A model generated the notes under the pieces. The model was not told the origin of the DNA, made no database searches, and was given only the letters and a program-made list of their open reading frames with translations. DNA of 6,047 nucleotides. Origin: a virus (Duplodnaviria; Heunggongvirae; Uroviricota; Caudoviricetes). The position numbers were made by a program, and so were the translations under genes. Below are positions 1 through 6,047 of the stretch, in pieces. The first letter of the stretch is position 1; each line of letters begins with the position of its first letter. The stretch covers positions 1 to 6,047 of the IMG/VR virus record IMGVR_UViG_2681813004_000006. The stretch is one strand, 5' to 3'.

Positions 1-1
1 C

Positions 2-409
2 ATACTGAAGCAGCGCACAAAAAATCTTGCGCCGCTGCCTCACGCCCACCAGCAAAACCCGCCACAGGAAAAGACGGTGGTCAGCATTGCCGTTGATCCT
101 GAGTCTCCGGAATCTTTCATGAAACGACCTAAACGTCGCCGCTGGGTTAACGAGAAATACACGCGCTGGGTGAAGACACAGCCGTGTGCGTGTTGTGGTA
201 AGCCTGCTGACGATCCGCATCACCTGATTGGTCATGGTCAGGGGGGAATGGGGACAAAGGCCCACGATATTTTCACGTTACCGTTGTGCCGGGAGCACCA
301 CAACGAACTTCATGCAGACCCGCTGGAGTTTGAGAAAAAGTACGGCTCTCAGATTGAGTTAATTTTTCGTTTTCTTGATCACGCCTTTGCGACTGGCGTG
401 CTCGGGTAA
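2..409 (+). CDS. DUF968/HNH-like prophage protein (YdfU-like), C-terminal part; frame is open to the window edge so the gene is probably 5'-truncated by the window
   Basis: Frame of the 77..409 ORF has no stop back to position 2. Cys/His-rich motif CACCGKP...HH...H...HH resembles the C-terminal HNH-like region of DUF968 proteins that commonly precede rusA in lambdoid prophages (recalled, not searched). The GTG at 77 could instead be a true start. Confidence 0.65.
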   Translation: MLKQRTKNLAPLPHAHQQNPPQEKTVVSIAVDPESPESFMKRPKRRRWVNEKYTRWVKTQPCACCGKPADDPHHLIGHGQGGMGTKAHDIFTLPLCREHHNELHADPLEFEKKYGSQIELIFRFLDHAFATGVLG

Positions 410-421
410 AAGAGGTGACTG

Positions 422-781
422 ATGCTCATAGATTTGGTTTTACCTTACCCGCCGACAGTGAACACTTACTGGCGACGTCGTGGCAGCACATATTTTGTAT
501 CAAAAGCCGGGGAGCGTTATCGCCGGGCAGTGGCGCTTATTGTTCGCCAGCAGCGACTGAAATTAAGCCTGTCCGGACGGCTGGCAATAAAAATTATTGC
601 AGAGCCACCGGATAAGCGTCGTCGTGACCTGGACAATATTCTGAAAGCACCGCTGGATGCGCTGACGCATGCGGGAGTGCTCATTGATGACGAGCAGTTT
701 GATGAAATCAATATTGTACGTGGTCAGCCAGTATCTGGTGGACGGCTGGGTGTGAAGATTTACAAAATTGAGAGTGAGTGA
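422..781 (+). CDS. rusA: RusA-family crossover junction endodeoxyribonuclease (Holliday junction resolvase)
   Basis: 119 aa, the typical RusA length. Motifs LPxPPTVNTYWRR..., ...PDKRRRDLDNILKAPLDALT..., and GGRLGVKIY match my memory of E. coli RusA. Strong SD AAGAGGTGA 6 nt upstream of the ATG at 422. Confidence 0.9.
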   Translation: MLIDLVLPYPPTVNTYWRRRGSTYFVSKAGERYRRAVALIVRQQRLKLSLSGRLAIKIIAEPPDKRRRDLDNILKAPLDALTHAGVLIDDEQFDEINIVRGQPVSGGRLGVKIYKIESE

Positions 782-1320
782 GCGTAAATATGATATATCC
801 GGAAATTACAGGCAAAAGCGGCGAACATTTACGCCTGAACACGCTGGAAGCAGTCTGGATCCAGGGGAAATTACGGATGTGGGGGCGGTGGTCGTATATC
901 GGTGGGGGTAAATCCGGAAATATGTTTAACCGGTTACTGGTTTCGAAAAAGCTGACGAAAACAGCAGTTAATGAGGTTTTACGCAGCATGAAGAAATCCG
1001 GGCTGGAAAAACCGGAACTTGAGGCATTTTTTCGGGATATGACCAGAGGGAAGCAGAAGAGCTGGTTGTCACATTGTACAGACACAGAGGCGTTGATTAT
1101 TGATCGCGTTATCAGTGAGGTGCTTGGGGAATATCCCGGGCTAATCAATATTCTCCGGCAAAGGTACGAAGGACGGGGAATGAGTAAGAGAAAAATGGCA
1201 GAATGTTTAAATCGTACTCACCCGGAATGGTGTTTCAGCACATGTGAGAAACGTATTGCAGGTTGGTTAGCCGTGGCTGAACACATGCTTTATGTACCTA
1301 TGCACGATTCATTTCGATAA
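778..1320 (+). CDS. Putative late-gene antitermination protein Q (Phage_antitermQ-like)
   Basis: 180-aa ORF directly after rusA and directly before a promoter/terminator module, the canonical Q position. Contains an RMWGRWSY motif reminiscent of phage-82-type Q proteins (from memory). Start is uncertain: GTG at 778 overlaps the rusA stop (GTGA), or ATG at 790. Confidence 0.6.
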   Translation: MSVNMIYPEITGKSGEHLRLNTLEAVWIQGKLRMWGRWSYIGGGKSGNMFNRLLVSKKLTKTAVNEVLRSMKKSGLEKPELEAFFRDMTRGKQKSWLSHCTDTEALIIDRVISEVLGEYPGLINILRQRYEGRGMSKRKMAECLNRTHPEWCFSTCEKRIAGWLAVAEHMLYVPMHDSFR

Positions 1321-1417
1321 AAAAAGCTTGCTTTTTTACGCAGAAACAGCTTGAATTCCTGTAAGCTTCGCAAAGCTGTATCGCGAGGCGAAATGCAAGT
1401 TTTTTCGCACAAGGAAG
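1321..1417 (+). promoter_or_regulatory. Putative late promoter PR' / Q-utilisation (qut) region
   Basis: About 100-bp non-coding stretch between the Q stop and a strong intrinsic terminator, with TTGCTT and TTGAAT -35-like hexamers and dyad symmetry (AGCTTCGCAAAGCT). Exact -10/-35 not resolved by eye. Confidence 0.35.
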
Positions 1418-1438
1418 CCACCGGAAGGTGGTTTTTTT
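1418..1438 (+). terminator. Intrinsic terminator, tR'-like
   Basis: GC stem CCACC / GGTGG with a GGAA tetraloop, followed by a 7-T run (1432-1438). Confidence 0.7.
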
Positions 1439-1561
1439 GTGTCCGCGATATACAGTAGCGCAATAAATTCGCTGGTGGTTATTAATACCGTTCTTTCAGC
1501 TTGCTGGCTTTTTCGACAAGAGTTATTGGTGTGTCACGTTAACCGGAAAAGGGAAAAAGAC

Positions 1562-1759
1562 ATGCTAAAACAGCAGGATATGACAGAAACCGCCAGAGTG
1601 GTGTTTAATGAATTAAGCGTTACCGAACCGGCGACAGTCGGGGAGATAGCGCAGAATACTTACCTTTCACGCGAACGCTGCCAGTTAATACTGACCCAGC
1701 TGGTTATGGCGGGTCTGGCAGACTATCAGTTCGGTTGTTACAGACGCCTTCCGCAGTGA
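1562..1759 (+). CDS. Hypothetical small protein (65 aa) with a probable winged-helix/HTH DNA-binding fold
   Basis: ATG at 1562 preceded by AAGGGA about 9 nt upstream. The stretch ATVGEIAQNTYLSRERCQLILTQLVMAGLADYQ has a helix-turn-helix-wing pattern. The track ORF from GTG 1439 starts inside the terminator T-run and is unlikely to be the real start. Confidence 0.4.
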   Translation: MLKQQDMTETARVVFNELSVTEPATVGEIAQNTYLSRERCQLILTQLVMAGLADYQFGCYRRLPQ

Positions 1760-1774
1760 AGGCTTTTTTATTTG
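1746..1774 (+). terminator. Candidate intrinsic terminator overlapping the stop of the small ORF
   Basis: Stem GCCTTC (1746-1751) / GAAGGC (1758-1763), followed by TTTTTTATTTG. Confidence 0.45.
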
Positions 1775-1786
1775 TGGTAAATGGGC

Positions 1787-1817
1787 GGCTGGTGGGTGTT
1801 AGGGGCACCCACCAGCC
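1787..1817. repeat. Perfect 12-bp inverted repeat (GGCTGGTGGGTG / CACCCACCAGCC) with a 7-nt spacer; possible operator or RNA hairpin
   Basis: Arms at 1787-1798 and 1806-1817 are exact reverse complements, with loop TTAGGGG. No U-tract follows. Confidence 0.6.
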
Positions 1818-2029
1818 ATCTGCTCATGCGTTGGGTTCACAAGCAAACCTCAGGCCCACTGCTTTGCGCAAAAGCAGAATGAGCCTATCAGAGACAGGCT
1901 TAATGATCCATGCTTAATACTGTAAAAATATCCAGTTGTTAGTTAATCAACGCCGACTGCCTGGAATTTATCCGGTCGTTACCCGAAAATTCTGTTGACC
2001 TGATAGTCACGGACCCGCCGTACTTTAAA

Positions 2030-2959
2030 GTGAAGCCTGAGGGCTGGGATAACCAGTGGAAGGGCGACGATGATTACCTGAAGTGGCAGGACCAGTGTCT
2101 GGCGCAGTTCTGGCGGGTGCTGAAACCTGCCGGAAGTCTTTACCTGTTCTGTGGTCATCGCCTGGCATCTGATATCGAAATCATGATGCGTGAACGCTTC
2201 AGTGTGCTGAACCATATTATCTGGGCGAAGCCGTCCGGACGCTGGAACGGATGCAACAAGGAAAGCCTGCGGGCGTATTTCCCCGTCACAGAGCGCATTC
2301 TGTTCGCGGAACATTATCAGGGGCCGTATCGTCCGAAAGATGCCGGGTATGCGGCGAAGGGCAGTGCACTGAAACAGCATGTGATGGCCCCGCTGATTTC
2401 TTACTTTCGTGATGCGCGCGCGGCCCTGGGGATAACGGCAAAACAGATTGCAGATGCCACAGGAAAGAAAAACATGGTGTCGCACTGGTTCAGTGCCAGT
2501 CAGTGGCAGCTACCGAACGAAAGCGATTATCTGAAATTACAGTCGCTGTTTGCCCGGGTGGCAGAAGAGAAACATCAGCGCGGTGAACTGGAAAAGCCCC
2601 ACCACCAGCTGGTGGATACGTATACGTCACTGAACCGGCAGTATGTGGAGCTGCAGAGTGAATATAAGCATCTGCGGCGGTATTTTGGTGTGACGGCGCA
2701 GGTGCCGTACACGGATGTGTGGACACATAAACCGGTGCAGTTCTATCCCGGGAAACATCCGTGCGAAAAACCGGCAGAAATGCTGCAGCAGATAATCAGC
2801 GCAAGTAGTCGTCCTGGTGATCTGGTTGCGGATTTTTTCATGGGGTCGGGTTCAACGGTAAAAGCGGCGATGGCACTGGGGCGTCGTGCGATTGGTGTTG
2901 AGCTGGAGACCGGACGTTTTGAGCAGACAGTCAGGGAAGTTCAGGATTTAATCGTTTGA
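2030..2959 (+). CDS. Beta-class N6-adenine/N4-cytosine DNA methyltransferase (orphan, phage-type). The homologous reading frame extends upstream to 1943 and to an ATG at 1910, but is interrupted by an in-frame TAG at 1940-1942.
   Basis: Motif IV DPPY is encoded at 2012-2023 (translation ...LINADCLEFIRSLPENSVDLIVTDPPYF...), upstream of the first canonical start (GTG 2030). Motif I FFMGSGST lies near the C-terminus. ATG 1910 gives MLNTVKISSC-TAG-LINADCL... in the same frame. No adjacent restriction endonuclease gene. Confidence 0.8.
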   Translation: MKPEGWDNQWKGDDDYLKWQDQCLAQFWRVLKPAGSLYLFCGHRLASDIEIMMRERFSVLNHIIWAKPSGRWNGCNKESLRAYFPVTERILFAEHYQGPYRPKDAGYAAKGSALKQHVMAPLISYFRDARAALGITAKQIADATGKKNMVSHWFSASQWQLPNESDYLKLQSLFARVAEEKHQRGELEKPHHQLVDTYTSLNRQYVELQSEYKHLRRYFGVTAQVPYTDVWTHKPVQFYPGKHPCEKPAEMLQQIISASSRPGDLVADFFMGSGSTVKAAMALGRRAIGVELETGRFEQTVREVQDLIV

Positions 2960-3008
2960 AACGGATGAGATTGCAGAATTAATTACGCACCATTATTATT
3001 CTGCTTCC

Positions 3009-3084
3009 GGCCCTTTAGCTCAGTGGTGAGAGCGAGCGACTCATAATCGCCAGGTCGCTGGTTCAAATCCAGCAAGGGCCACCA
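3009..3084 (+). tRNA. tRNA with CAU anticodon, ileX/ileZ-like (tRNA-Ile2 by lysidine modification; would be called Met by anticodon alone)
   Basis: 76-nt cloverleaf: acceptor GGCCCTT/AAGGGCC, D-stem GCTC/GAGC, anticodon loop CTCATAA, T-arm GCTGG-TTCAAAT-CCAGC, encoded CCA. Near-identical to E. coli ileX as I recall it. Confidence 0.9.
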
Positions 3085-3085
3085 A

Positions 3086-3161
3086 CCGCCACTAGCCATC
3101 AGGAAAGAGCGTCAACCCTTTAAGTTGAGTGTGCGAGGTTCGAGTCCCCGGTGGCGGTCCA
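3086..3161 (+). tRNA. Atypical or degenerate tRNA-like gene (anticodon loop CCTTTAA, nominal anticodon UUU; identity uncertain, possibly a pseudo-tRNA)
   Basis: Perfect 7-bp acceptor stem CCGCCAC/GTGGCGG (C1-G72), T-loop TTCGAGT, encoded CCA, and a good anticodon stem TCAAC/GTTGA. However the D-stem is GCCA/GAGC with two mismatches, position 33 is C rather than the near-universal U, and the T-stem has an A-C mismatch. Confidence 0.5.
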
Positions 3162-3163
3162 GT

Positions 3164-3239
<76 letters not shown>

Positions 3240-3247
3240 TCAAGTCC

Positions 3248-3282
3248 GGTGGGGTTCCCGAGCGGCCAAAGGGAGCAGACTG
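3248..3282 (+). pseudogene. 5' fragment (about 35 nt) of a tRNA-Tyr gene, lacking the anticodon and 3' half
   Basis: GGTGGGGTTCCCGAGCGGCCAAAGGGAGCAGACTG matches the 5' end of E. coli tRNA-Tyr (tyrT/tyrU) as I recall it; similarity is lost immediately afterwards (ACTCAGTTCATGG...). Confidence 0.65.
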
Positions 3283-3539
3283 ACTCAGTTCATGGCCAAA
3301 AACGATTTCTGTGATAAATATTTTGAATATTATTTACAGGTAAATGGAGTGGGGCACATGGATAGAAATATTACAATAGAGAATGAAGTATATGCCCGTA
3401 TTGTATGGGCAGAGAAGGCAAAAACACGGTAATTCCGTGTGTTGCCATGATACCTGATTGGCAGAATAGTTGTTTGGTTTTGAGTATATAGTCAGCGTTT
3501 TTTGTTCAGTAATTGCTCCCTCAAAAAATAATAAAATAA

Positions 3540-3660
3540 GGTGATTATTTTTGTTTATTATTTAGTTTTTTTTGTGTGTTGTTTTATTGTTTTTGCGTGG
3601 TTTGTTTTTTATTGTTATTTCATTAAGGGAAGGTAAATTCAGGATGGCAGTCTGTAGATA
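3540..3660 (+). promoter_or_regulatory. T-rich, AT-rich upstream region of the PerC-like gene (probable promoter and curved-DNA region)
   Basis: Iterated TTTTTGT / TTGTTTT / TTATTGTT motifs across 3545-3620, directly upstream of the strong SD and ATG of the 3675 gene. Possible -35 TTGTTA (3613-3618) and -10 TAAATT (3634-3639). Confidence 0.35.
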
Positions 3661-3674
3661 ATCGGAGGTCACTT

Positions 3675-3989
3675 ATGCTACATGATCACGTGGCAGAATG
3701 TCTGGAGAAAAAAGGACTGTACCGGAGAGCAGCTGAACGATGGGCAAAAGTGATGGTACAGCTAAGTGATGACCAGAAAAGAAAAGTAGCGGCACAGAAA
3801 CGAGCAGAGTGTTTGCGTAAGGCGCGCCGGACTCCGGTTTCACCGGTGAACCTGACCGAAATAAAACAAGCGGTCAACAGACTACATTCTGAGTTGGGAA
3901 TGGGATTTGAAGAGCGGCGGGTATTCCGACGATATAAAGGGACAGGAGAACAGAATACGTCCGGAAACGCGCGGTCAAAAAAATGCTAA
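3675..3989 (+). CDS. PerC-family transcriptional regulator (Pch-like, PerC homolog)
   Basis: 104 aa. N-terminal motif LEKKGLYRRAAERWAKVM matches the conserved PerC/Pch signature (ekkGlyRRAAerW) as I recall it; basic C-terminus. Strong SD GGAGG 6 nt before the ATG. AT-rich context typical of prophage cargo genes. Confidence 0.7.
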   Translation: MLHDHVAECLEKKGLYRRAAERWAKVMVQLSDDQKRKVAAQKRAECLRKARRTPVSPVNLTEIKQAVNRLHSELGMGFEERRVFRRYKGTGEQNTSGNARSKKC

Positions 3990-4025
3990 AAAATATCTGA
4001 GAGAGTTATTGCCTGTTACCATAAG

Positions 4026-4052
4026 AAAAAGCGACTTTAGTGGTCGCTTTTT
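4026..4052. terminator. Bidirectional intrinsic terminator between convergent genes
   Basis: AAAAA-GCGAC-TTTAGTG-GTCGC-TTTTT: a 5-bp GC-rich stem flanked by an A-run upstream and a T-run downstream, so it can terminate on both strands. Confidence 0.6.
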
Positions 4053-4070
4053 GTGTCATATATAAGTCGT

Positions 4071-4295
4071 TTAAGTAAACCTGTCTGAACAGGTGCTCTG
4101 GTCGTGTTTGTCTTTGTTGGGTACAAATTGAGAATATTTTTCATTAATTAATCTTCTTCTGCAGGCTTCAATAACCCACGCTGAAAAATTACCTGAACCT
4201 TTCAGGTCAAGAGCGATGTTAATTTGTTCAATTATCTGGTTTGGAAATCGGATGTTGCGGGTTGTTGTTCTGCGGGTTCTGTTCTTTGATGACAT
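4071..4295 (-). CDS. Small YlcI/YnfO-like (DUF3950-like) prophage protein, 74 aa
   Basis: Internal ATG (M35 of the 108-aa track ORF) gives MSSKNRTRRTTTRNIRFPNQIIEQINIALDLKGSGNFSAWVIEACRRRL..., resembling DLP12 YlcI as I recall it. A perfect TATAAT on the - strand (plus coordinates 4338-4343) lies about 40 bp upstream. The longer 108-aa form (start 4397) is possible but would begin upstream of that promoter. Confidence 0.5.
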   Translation of the reverse strand: MSSKNRTRRTTTRNIRFPNQIIEQINIALDLKGSGNFSAWVIEACRRRLINEKYSQFVPNKDKHDQSTCSDRFT

Positions 4296-4465
4296 AATGT
4301 TGCCCCGAGGGGTTACATATTGCCAAAAAACTGCTTTATTATATCCCGAATAACGCGGGGATCCTGCTGGTACCATGCTGTCGTGGTGGTTCGGCATTTA
4401 CCCAGGGCGCGGAGGGGACATTCAGTGCGGACACGGGGGCCAGCCAGGATTCGGCGCGCTGGGGT

Positions 4466-5716
4466 GTGGGTAAACCGTTATATCAGGACCTGATTGCGCG
4501 CACCAAAGCTGCATTACAGAAGAACCCGAAAAATGTGTTGCTGGCGGTGTGCTGGATGCAGGGAGAGTTTGACATGAGCGCCGCCACCCACGCACAGCAA
4601 CCTGCGCTGTTTACAGCCATGCTGACACAGTTTCGTGCTGACCTCTCCGTGTTTAACGCGCAGTGCCATGGTGGCAGTGCTGCAGATGTGCCGTGGATTT
4701 GTGGTGACACGACGTATTACTGGAAAAATACATACGCTACCCAGTACGACACCGTGTACGGCGGGTATAAAAACAGGGAGAGTGAGGGCGTTTATTTTGT
4801 GCCCTTCATGACAGACGGTAACGGCGTCAATACCGCCACTAACGCGCCGGCAGAAGATCCGGATATTCCGGCATCAGGATATTACGGTGCGGCATCGAGA
4901 ACGAATGGAAACCAGGTATCATCAAACCGCCCGACACATTTCAGTTCATGGGCGCGCAGGAGCATTATTCCGGATCGTCTGGCAACCGCTATTCTGAACG
5001 CAGCCGGGCGCACCTCAGCCTTCATCAGTGGTAAGGCACCGGAAATCAAACCCTCGCCCGGCGGCAACACGCCATCGGGTCCGTCTGCAGATACGTCCGT
5101 TCGCACAATCTCCCTGCTGCCGGCAGCCGGAGAGGCTGCTGCGCAGGGCTGGAGCATTAAGGATGGCGGAATTCAGTTGTCAGATGGTGTATTTAAGATC
5201 ACCAAGCAGAGCAATAAAACCTGGTCCCTGACGCATCCGGTGGATGACGCAATTACCCTGCTGACACAGGGCGGCAGACTGACCTGTAAGTTCCGCCTGT
5301 CAGGCGCACTGACCAACAATCAGTTCGGGCTGGGGATTTATCTGTATACGGATGCTCCCGTTCCTGATGGTGTGGCGATGACGGGTACCGGTAATCCGTT
5401 CCTGATGTCGTACTTCACTCAGACCACTGACGGCAGAGTGAATCTGATGCATCACAGGAAAGCCGGAAACACGAAGCTGGGGGAGTTCGGCGATTACGGT
5501 AACGACTGGCAGACGCTGGAGCTGGTGTTCACCGCCGGCAGTGCCACGGTTACTCCGAAACTGAATGGAGTGGCTGGCCCGGCATTCCAGGTTATAAAAG
5601 ACAGTCTGACACTGGGACTGAATGCGCTGACGCTGACGGATGTTACAAAAAATGCAGCGTATGGCGTTGAGATAGAAAGTCTGGTGCTGGAGATAAATGC
5701 ACCGGCATCATCATAA
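4466..5716 (+). CDS. NanS-p-like 9-O-acetyl-sialate esterase homolog, N-terminally truncated (SGNH/DUF303 C-terminal half plus C-terminal beta-rich domain); possibly a gene remnant
   Basis: Motifs IPNNAGILLVPCCRGGSAF (upstream, in frame but with no start), [19 protein letters not shown], and [16 protein letters not shown] resemble the central and C-terminal parts of YjhS/NanS as I recall them. The frame is open from 4298, with the first canonical start a GTG at 4466 and no good SD. The N-terminal GQSN catalytic-serine region is absent. Confidence 0.65.
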
Positions 5717-5800
5717 AAAGTGAGCCAGTCAAATGGAAGGTATCGTTAAACTCACCGGTAGTGTCAGTGGGTCGTCTGAGACGCCTGCATGAGTTATCAG

Positions 5801-5834
5801 AGCCATCAGTAGTTAACTGGTGGCTTTTTTATTG
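5801..5834 (+). terminator. Intrinsic terminator upstream of the holin gene
   Basis: 9-bp stem AGCCATCAG / CTGGTGGCT (one G-U wobble), loop TAGTTAA, followed by TTTTTTATT. Confidence 0.55.
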
Positions 5835-5865
5835 TTGTCAGCTTCCGGATAACGGGAGACGGGGT

Positions 5866-6047
5866 ATGTACCAGATGGAAAAAATCACAACAGGTGTGTC
5901 ATACACCACGTCAGCGGTAGGGACGGGATACTGGTTACTGCAACTGCTGGACAAAGTCTCTCCGTCCCAGTGGGTGGCAATAGGTGTACTGGGGAGTCTG
6001 CTGTTTGGCCTGCTGACGTATCTGACTAACCTGTATTTCAAAATCAG
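5866..6047 (+). CDS. Lambdoid class-I holin (S-like), 5' portion; continues beyond the window end
   Basis: Translation [60 protein letters not shown]... matches lambdoid-prophage S holins from memory. Dual-start motif (Met1 and Met4), SD GGGAG 7 nt upstream, hydrophobic TM segments. Not in the ORF track because no stop falls inside the window. Confidence 0.85.

Follow-up and report, generated by a model that had tools for sequence, protein, structure and literature searches.

The closest described relatives of the gene studied here are M.EcoGII and M.EcoGI of E. coli O104:H4 strain C227-11, both of which are non-specific adenine DNA methyltransferases (Murray et al. 2018, PMC5778455). M.EcoGII, a 349-residue enzyme encoded by a prophage of E. 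coli O104:H4, has been purified and characterised. Its gene is silent in the lysogen, constitutive expression does harm, and induction of the prophage is believed to turn it on (PMC5778455). Genes annotated as 'DNA methylase' are also found in Stx2-converting and related lambdoid phages, where they lie between the antiterminator gene Q and the tRNA/stx/lysis region.

A member of this group was identified in a 6,047-nucleotide stretch of viral DNA (IMG/VR record IMGVR_UViG_2681813004_000006, positions 1–6,047; here called the window), where an ancestral 349-codon ORF (1910–2959, plus strand, as are all features given below) is broken by an amber codon at its eleventh position. Protein comparisons were made with this ORF after repair of the stop (349 aa). 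Residues 29–340 of the repaired ORF matched the Pfam family PF01555 (N6_N4_Mtase) at 150.9 bits (gathering cutoff 26.7), and in the PDB the ORF matched the beta-class enzymes RsrI, CcrM, MboIIA and DpnA. The motif order is also that of the beta class, with the catalytic motif IV, DPPY, near the N-terminus (residues 35–38, at 2012–2023) and the S-adenosylmethionine-binding motif I, FxGxG, near the C-terminus (FMGSG, residues 310–314, intact at 2837–2851). Compared with M.EcoGII, 330 of 350 positions were identical (94%, perhaps slightly more in truth, as the M.EcoGII sequence comes from a machine-read text with a few misreadings, Supplementary Table S1 of PMC11551740). Residues 1–59 were identical, with the stop repaired, and residue 11 of M.EcoGII is Glu. 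A literature search by peptide fragment did not find the M.EcoGII sequence in the main texts of papers.

The reading of the 5′ end of the gene in the initial annotation was borne out by the sequence and its translation. An ATG at 1910–1912 opens the methyltransferase frame with the ten sense codons MLNTVKISSC (1910–1939), the eleventh codon is TAG (1940–1942), and the DPPY motif lies downstream in the same frame. Intact homologues of 349–352 aa are annotated from this same ATG. After the stop the frame reads LINADCLEFIRSLPENSVDLIVTDPPYF and runs on to its natural stop at 2957–2959. Reading of the codons and of the ORF list likewise agreed that there is no in-frame ATG, GTG or TTG between the TAG and the DPPY motif. 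The earliest of these is the GTG at 2030–2032, which begins a 309-aa ORF in the program-made list and gives a protein that lacks DPPY. Five minor start codons of translation table 11 do lie in frame between the TAG and the motif, namely ATC 1946, CTG 1961, ATC 1970, CTG 2000 and ATA 2003. The claim that a protein containing DPPY could be made only by suppression of the stop was thus slightly too strong, given that these codons precede the motif and that RefSeq uses one of them as the start. None of them has Shine-Dalgarno support.

The residue lost to the stop was identified from homologues. Among 5,426 complete E. coli genomes, 1,975 have the gene. When the start regions from six of these were aligned, codon 11 varied only in having G or T at 1940: all five intact copies read GAG, and strain MB06102 and the window read TAG. 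This base was then counted with 33-nt queries centred on it, such that the 28-nt exact word used by megablast must span it. Among the 5,426 genomes the GAG (Glu) form was present in 1,762 (2,145 places) and the TAG form in 6 (6 places), so that the amber codon at 1940–1942 corresponds to Glu11 changed by a G-to-T transversion at 1940. The GAG 33-mer also occurred in 17 GenBank phage records, mostly of Stx2 phages, while the TAG 33-mer was present in none of the phage records, was without a match among the GTDB species representatives, and was found in two IMG/VR contigs.

The region upstream of the DPPY motif is conserved well beyond E. coli. In 114 of 120 cluster representatives, drawn from many enterobacterial genera, DPPY starts at residue 35, and the N-termini of these 114 follow the pattern M-x-N-T-V-K-I-[S/N]-S-x-[E/D]-L-[I/V]-N-A-D-C-L. 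M1, N3, T4, V5, K6, I7 and S9 are conserved, and residues 3–9 and 12–18 are nearly invariant. Position 11 is acidic in 109 of the 114 (E in 94 and D in 15, with K in 2, Q in 2 and H in 1), and a stop at codon 11 was indicated in none of the 120. Because an acidic residue is conserved at this place within a conserved N-terminus, the amber codon replaces a conserved residue inside the coding region. An AF2 model built with 37 homologues predicts beta-strands at residues 4–7 and 10–13, with a pLDDT of 82–92 over the first 30 residues, although the mean over the whole model is only 69. Four pairwise comparisons among intact alleles gave dN/dS values of about 0.10, and the window compared with the intact EcU1 allele, leaving out the stop codon, gave 0.08. 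The intact alleles are under strong purifying selection.

The copies that carry TAG are nearly identical to each other. The comparison covered five of the six complete genomes, that is, all except strain 22-250. Four of the five were identical across the gene, and the window differed from these only at 2088. The fifth, strain Z1323CEC0015, had 15 further differences, all of them within 2522–2565. A second, recurrent TAG mutation was considered for this strain and rejected, since its differences cluster in this single 45-nt patch and point to recombination. With the patch set aside, the TAG copies differ by 0–1 nt across the gene. Over longer distances, carriers from China, New Zealand and Japan differ by 1–2 bases in 8.4 kb, and an isolate from the Galapagos by 2 bases in 7.1 kb. 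The complete genomes that carry TAG come from five countries. This near identity indicates a single recent GAG-to-TAG transversion: the TAG allele is derived and rare and has one recent origin.

The gene order in related genomes is DUF968, RusA, DUF1133 (Q), a small ORF, the methyltransferase, tRNAs, DUF6645, and the holin and lysis genes. No endonuclease adjoins the methyltransferase in this order, making it an orphan. In the window, the DUF1133 protein, named quuQ or antitermination protein Q in records of related phages, is encoded at 778–1320 and puts the methyltransferase within the late region under Q control, and a GC hairpin followed by a T-run, terminator-like by pattern match, lies at 1746–1773, just upstream of the methyltransferase gene. 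With these two elements upstream, it is reasonable to infer that the methyltransferase is expressed late and depends on antitermination by Q. Downstream, ARAGORN placed three tRNAs at 3009–3239, with anticodons CAT, TTT and TGT, two of which were also backed by the Rfam tRNA model.

Further changes accompany the stop. Only two private substitutions were seen in the TAG lineage and both are non-synonymous: L60Q in the window, where T-to-A at 2088 turns codon 60 (2087–2089) into CAG, and V70G in another IMG/VR contig (L019). Neither of the residues affected, Leu60 and Val70, varies in an alignment of 37 sequences of the family. These changes point towards relaxed constraint after the stop arose, with the weak statistics of two substitutions. 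Decay of the prophage was read in the carrier strain CD45, the window itself covering only 6 kb of its own prophage. In the CD45 prophage the portal gene and ydfC are both frameshifted, YdfR is truncated, and a terminase is missing from the annotation.

The stop could in principle be an artefact of sequencing or assembly, an error that the initial annotation had raised for 1940–1942, and the window is indeed a short draft contig, a whole NCBI contig of 6,047 bp, the downstream part of which looks chimeric. The same TAG is, however, present in the six complete genomes, in the two IMG/VR contigs and in two independent Logan assemblies of public runs: contigs from SRR30129186 and SRR17988634 carry the window haplotype, one being identical to the window over 1521–3036 and the other over 1669–3036. 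Proteins called from the TAG allele are moreover on record for 74 contigs in a 337-aa form and for 17 in a 309-aa form. The recurrence of TAG in independent genomes and assemblies means that it is not a sequencing error, and the chance of an artefact is practically nil. A real stop might instead be recoded, translation continuing past the UAG to the full-length enzyme with the help of a suppressor tRNA or through programmed or near-cognate readthrough; this was the first of three outcomes offered by the initial annotation. The frame does continue perfectly past the stop, and basal readthrough of UAG exists in E. coli. Against this, the stop is not conserved among homologues, being confined to one recent haplotype in 6 genomes compared with 1,762 that have GAG, and, as the initial annotation had noted, none of the three tRNAs found in the window by ARAGORN has a CUA anticodon. 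The initial annotation had also pointed to supE and supF in the host. A 33-mer of the supE-type glnV(CUA) was found in 157 genomes, about 97 of which were listed; no TAG carrier was among those listed, and all but one of them had genomes of K-12 size, most being named laboratory strains, the exception being ETEC1738, a pig isolate with a genome of 5.58 Mb. The supF-type tyrT(CUA) 33-mer was found in one laboratory strain. In the records listed, suppressor alleles thus belonged almost exclusively to laboratory derivatives of K-12. A search for a stimulatory RNA structure was also negative, the predicted fold of 1900–2040 being no better than those of shuffled sequences (z = −0.94). The base that follows the TAG is U, reportedly a strong context for termination. 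A bypass of the stop by frameshifting was not found either, as the +1 frame meets TAA at 1944 and the −1 frame TGA near 1996, so that both alternative frames close within 60 nt of the stop. We give recoding almost no credence: the TAG makes this a rare but otherwise ordinary knockout of the gene rather than a signal for recoding.

An allele knocked out for full-length translation might still be attenuated rather than dead, if reinitiation at AUC 1946, or at one of the later CTG or ATA codons, made a little of a shortened enzyme that contains DPPY and keeps some activity. ATC 1946 (Ile13) is in frame, lies 3 nt after the stop and ahead of DPPY, and is the codon at which PGAP starts a 337-aa protein. 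Apart from the stop the ORF is intact, its downstream part is fully open in every copy seen, and M.EcoGII is potent, so that even traces might still methylate DNA. Near-cognate AUC, CUG and AUA codons initiate at about 0.02–3% of the level of AUG in E. coli reporters (bioRxiv 10.1101/063800). However, Shine-Dalgarno complementarity is absent before each of these minor starts: the calculated energy of pairing to the 3′ end of 16S rRNA is +0.9 kcal/mol at ATC 1946 and between +0.9 and +0.1 kcal/mol across the minor starts, compared with −7 to −10 kcal/mol for good sites in the same window. The product from ATC 1946 would also lack the conserved residues 1–12, and with them most of the predicted beta-hairpin, and the changes at the invariant residues 60 and 70 suggest that selection no longer acts on the protein. 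A homologue that seemed naturally short, starting at the equivalent of the ATC (P0101, one short representative of a few), was rejected as a gene-calling artefact, having an in-frame upstream TTG that is followed by the homologous N-terminus. Attenuation by reinitiation is thus unlikely. A related reading, that the amber allele is in effect a naturally attenuated M.EcoGII supplying trace amounts of active enzyme through reinitiation at AUC 1946 or near-cognate readthrough, we consider very unlikely; if it were true, so small an amount would spare the cell the toxicity of the full enzyme and still give the DNA partial protection, and this would explain the spread of the allele to strains on several continents. 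The other restart to be considered is at GTG 2030, the outcome that the initial annotation had described as an N-truncated protein, where the 309-aa product would lack DPPY, retain the target-recognition domain and the SAM-binding half, and have acquired a non-catalytic role. In its favour, no canonical in-frame start after the stop precedes GTG 2030, Prodigal-type gene callers deposit exactly this protein, and early amber mutants of lacI and T4 rIIB restart at internal GUG or AUG codons. Against it, 88 nt separate this GTG from the stop, its Shine-Dalgarno complementarity is weak (−3.2 kcal/mol), nothing suggests that the product has been selected for, and the haplotype is too young for a new role, all of which makes such a protein highly improbable.

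We therefore return to simple loss of function, the remaining outcome offered by the initial annotation, which described a nonsense-inactivated orphan methyltransferase. It agrees with the rarity of TAG relative to GAG, with the single recent lineage and with the decaying prophage. Very probably, the window carries an allele of a prophage methyltransferase, a non-specific adenine enzyme of the M.EcoGII type, that has recently lost its function: the disabling mutation is derived, rare and of single origin while its homologues are constrained, and it is accompanied by signs of relaxed constraint and by decay in its neighbourhood. The course of events may be pictured as follows. In its intact relatives the gene lies in a lambdoid prophage with the Q antiterminator on one side and the tRNA/lysis block on the other; it is not expressed in the lysogen, and is believed to be turned on late in induction to methylate the phage DNA against restriction. 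In the window a single G-to-T transversion converted Glu11 (GAG) to amber (TAG). Ribosomes that start at the native ATG 1910 would then terminate after ten residues, and little or no active enzyme would be made as a result. The remaining 338 codons are still open, only because the mutation is recent. Since the allele travels with a decaying prophage, its loss would be costless to the host and may even remove a potentially harmful gene. On the evidence of the sequence, the expected outcome is loss of function, with trace activity possible.

The way in which the allele has been deposited gives the case its main value, which is one of annotation caution: a single amber allele has entered the databases as two apparently intact proteins. 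NCBI PGAP annotates all the TAG copies from ATC 1946–1948 as a 337-aa 'DNA-methyltransferase' (WP_251987647.1 in the case of the window), and it is because the gene is started there that the lesion is hidden in RefSeq. Other callers begin at GTG 2030 and give a 309-aa 'DNA methylase' that lacks DPPY (CTT32611.1 and others). Neither entry is flagged as a pseudogene, and predictions of methylomes or defence systems that are based on annotation would therefore wrongly count an active enzyme. The allele further provides a naturally occurring null in the family from which M.EcoGII, a common reagent for chromatin footprinting, is drawn, and adds one more example of decay by small lesions in the cargo genes of the late region of lambdoid prophages. 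Early amber mutations, restarts and the decay of prophage genes are already known, textbook phenomena, and the amber allele opens no new biological question.

Loss of the same gene by a different route is seen in the O157 strain E. coli PA2, where the copy of the methyltransferase gene is independently frameshifted by a 1-nt deletion at gene position 683. There, as in the window, one small lesion has been enough to disable this prophage gene; the two differ in that the PA2 lesion is a frameshift and is flagged as a pseudogene by PGAP, whereas the amber allele is unflagged. The early amber mutants of lacI and T4 rIIB resemble the window in having a stop close to the start that is followed by a long open frame with internal candidate starts. 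Their restarts are, however, at AUG, GUG or UUG codons with some ribosome-binding context, unlike the window, where the starts that precede DPPY are AUC, CUG and AUA without a Shine-Dalgarno sequence, and the first GUG lies beyond DPPY. With the 'DNA methylase' genes of Stx2-type phages the window gene shares its position 3′ of the DUF1133/QuuQ antiterminator. The copies in those phages are intact and stand in phage records, where the TAG allele does not occur, and their setting differs from that of the TAG allele, the prophage of which is defective where it can be inspected. With M.EcoGII itself the window gene has in common the length of 349 codons, the order of DPPY, target-recognition domain and FxGxG, the location in a prophage, and the lack of a partner endonuclease. 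M.EcoGII has an uninterrupted frame with Glu at codon 11, while the window allele has the amber stop there and, in addition, L60Q at an invariant residue. Judged by its sequence, motifs and genomic context, the gene in the window belongs by descent to the M.EcoGII family, from which it departs only in its broken frame, as a disabled allele.

The TAG lineage of the methyltransferase gene carries private substitutions in addition to the amber codon. A T-to-A change at window position 2088 replaces Leu60, a residue invariant in 37 homologues, with Gln (codon 60), and this substitution is found only in the window haplotype and its two matches among the Logan contigs, which are assemblies of public runs. 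An analogous private change, V70G, is present in the IMG/VR contig L019. Both L60Q and V70G fit a relaxation of constraint since the nonsense mutation. The TAG allele of strain Z1323CEC0015 differs in another way, with 15 substitutions clustered within 45 nt, equivalent to window 2522–2565 in the target-recognition region, and identity elsewhere. This pattern points to a short recombination (gene-conversion) patch, whose donor would be another allele of the methyltransferase family.

The same gene has been disabled independently in E. coli PA2 (NZ_CP145944.1, O157-type). The homologous methyltransferase gene of this strain, at 2210–3267 of the locus compared, is annotated as 'frameshifted'; set against an intact O157 allele, it has lost 1 nt at gene position 683. 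This is a separate pseudogenisation event. The amber allele, on the other hand, has given rise to two different deposited 'intact' proteins (P0121–P0124), neither of which is flagged as a pseudogene: a 337-aa protein called by PGAP from an ATC start at window 1946 (WP_251987647.1 and WP_252322676.1), and a 309-aa protein from a GTG start at window 2030 (e.g. CTT32611.1). With regard to suppression, the pig (Sus scrofa) isolate ETEC1738 (NZ_CP122768.1), with a 5.58-Mb genome, carries the 33-mer of supE-type glnV(CUA), the only non-K-12-sized genome to do so among the approximately 97 matches listed. Judged by this match, ETEC1738 may hold a natural amber-suppressor allele.

Upstream of the methyltransferase gene, pattern matching located a GC-rich hairpin that leads into a T-run at window 1746–1773, immediately 3′ of a 66-aa ORF (1562–1759) and about 140 nt before the methyltransferase start. 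The hairpin is a candidate intrinsic terminator that would separate Q, the DUF1133 protein gene, from the late cargo genes. No σ70-like promoter was found in window 1250–3350.

Downstream, the tRNA block at window 3086–3283 is unlike that of every relative. The second tRNA called by ARAGORN (Lys, TTT) falls below the Rfam tRNA threshold; it is a prophage tRNA-Arg(UCG) copy that has diverged and lacks 1 nt of the D-arm. Behind the third (Thr, TGT) lies an apparent 5′ half of tRNA-Tyr, cut at the anticodon, a pair which we take to resemble chromosomal thrU-tyrU. This junction is absent from the complete E. coli genomes, in which no place covers at least 80% of window 3080–3480, and the Logan contigs with the window's haplotype stop at 3036. 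The contig's downstream part may thus have been joined chimerically across tRNA repeats during assembly, or it may reflect a rare rearrangement. Gene order across 3284–6047 is rearranged compared with strains PA2 and CD45, the latter a TAG carrier. Homology to the DUF6645 gene, annotated in related phage records as yjhS (9-O-acetyl-N-acetylneuraminic acid deacetylase), starts only at 4308, and because this is about 445 nt into the gene, the ORF at 4466–5716 is its 5′-truncated remnant. The PerC/YlcI–YnfO segment (3284–4306) directly follows the tRNAs in the window, whereas in PA2 it lies after the lysis genes.
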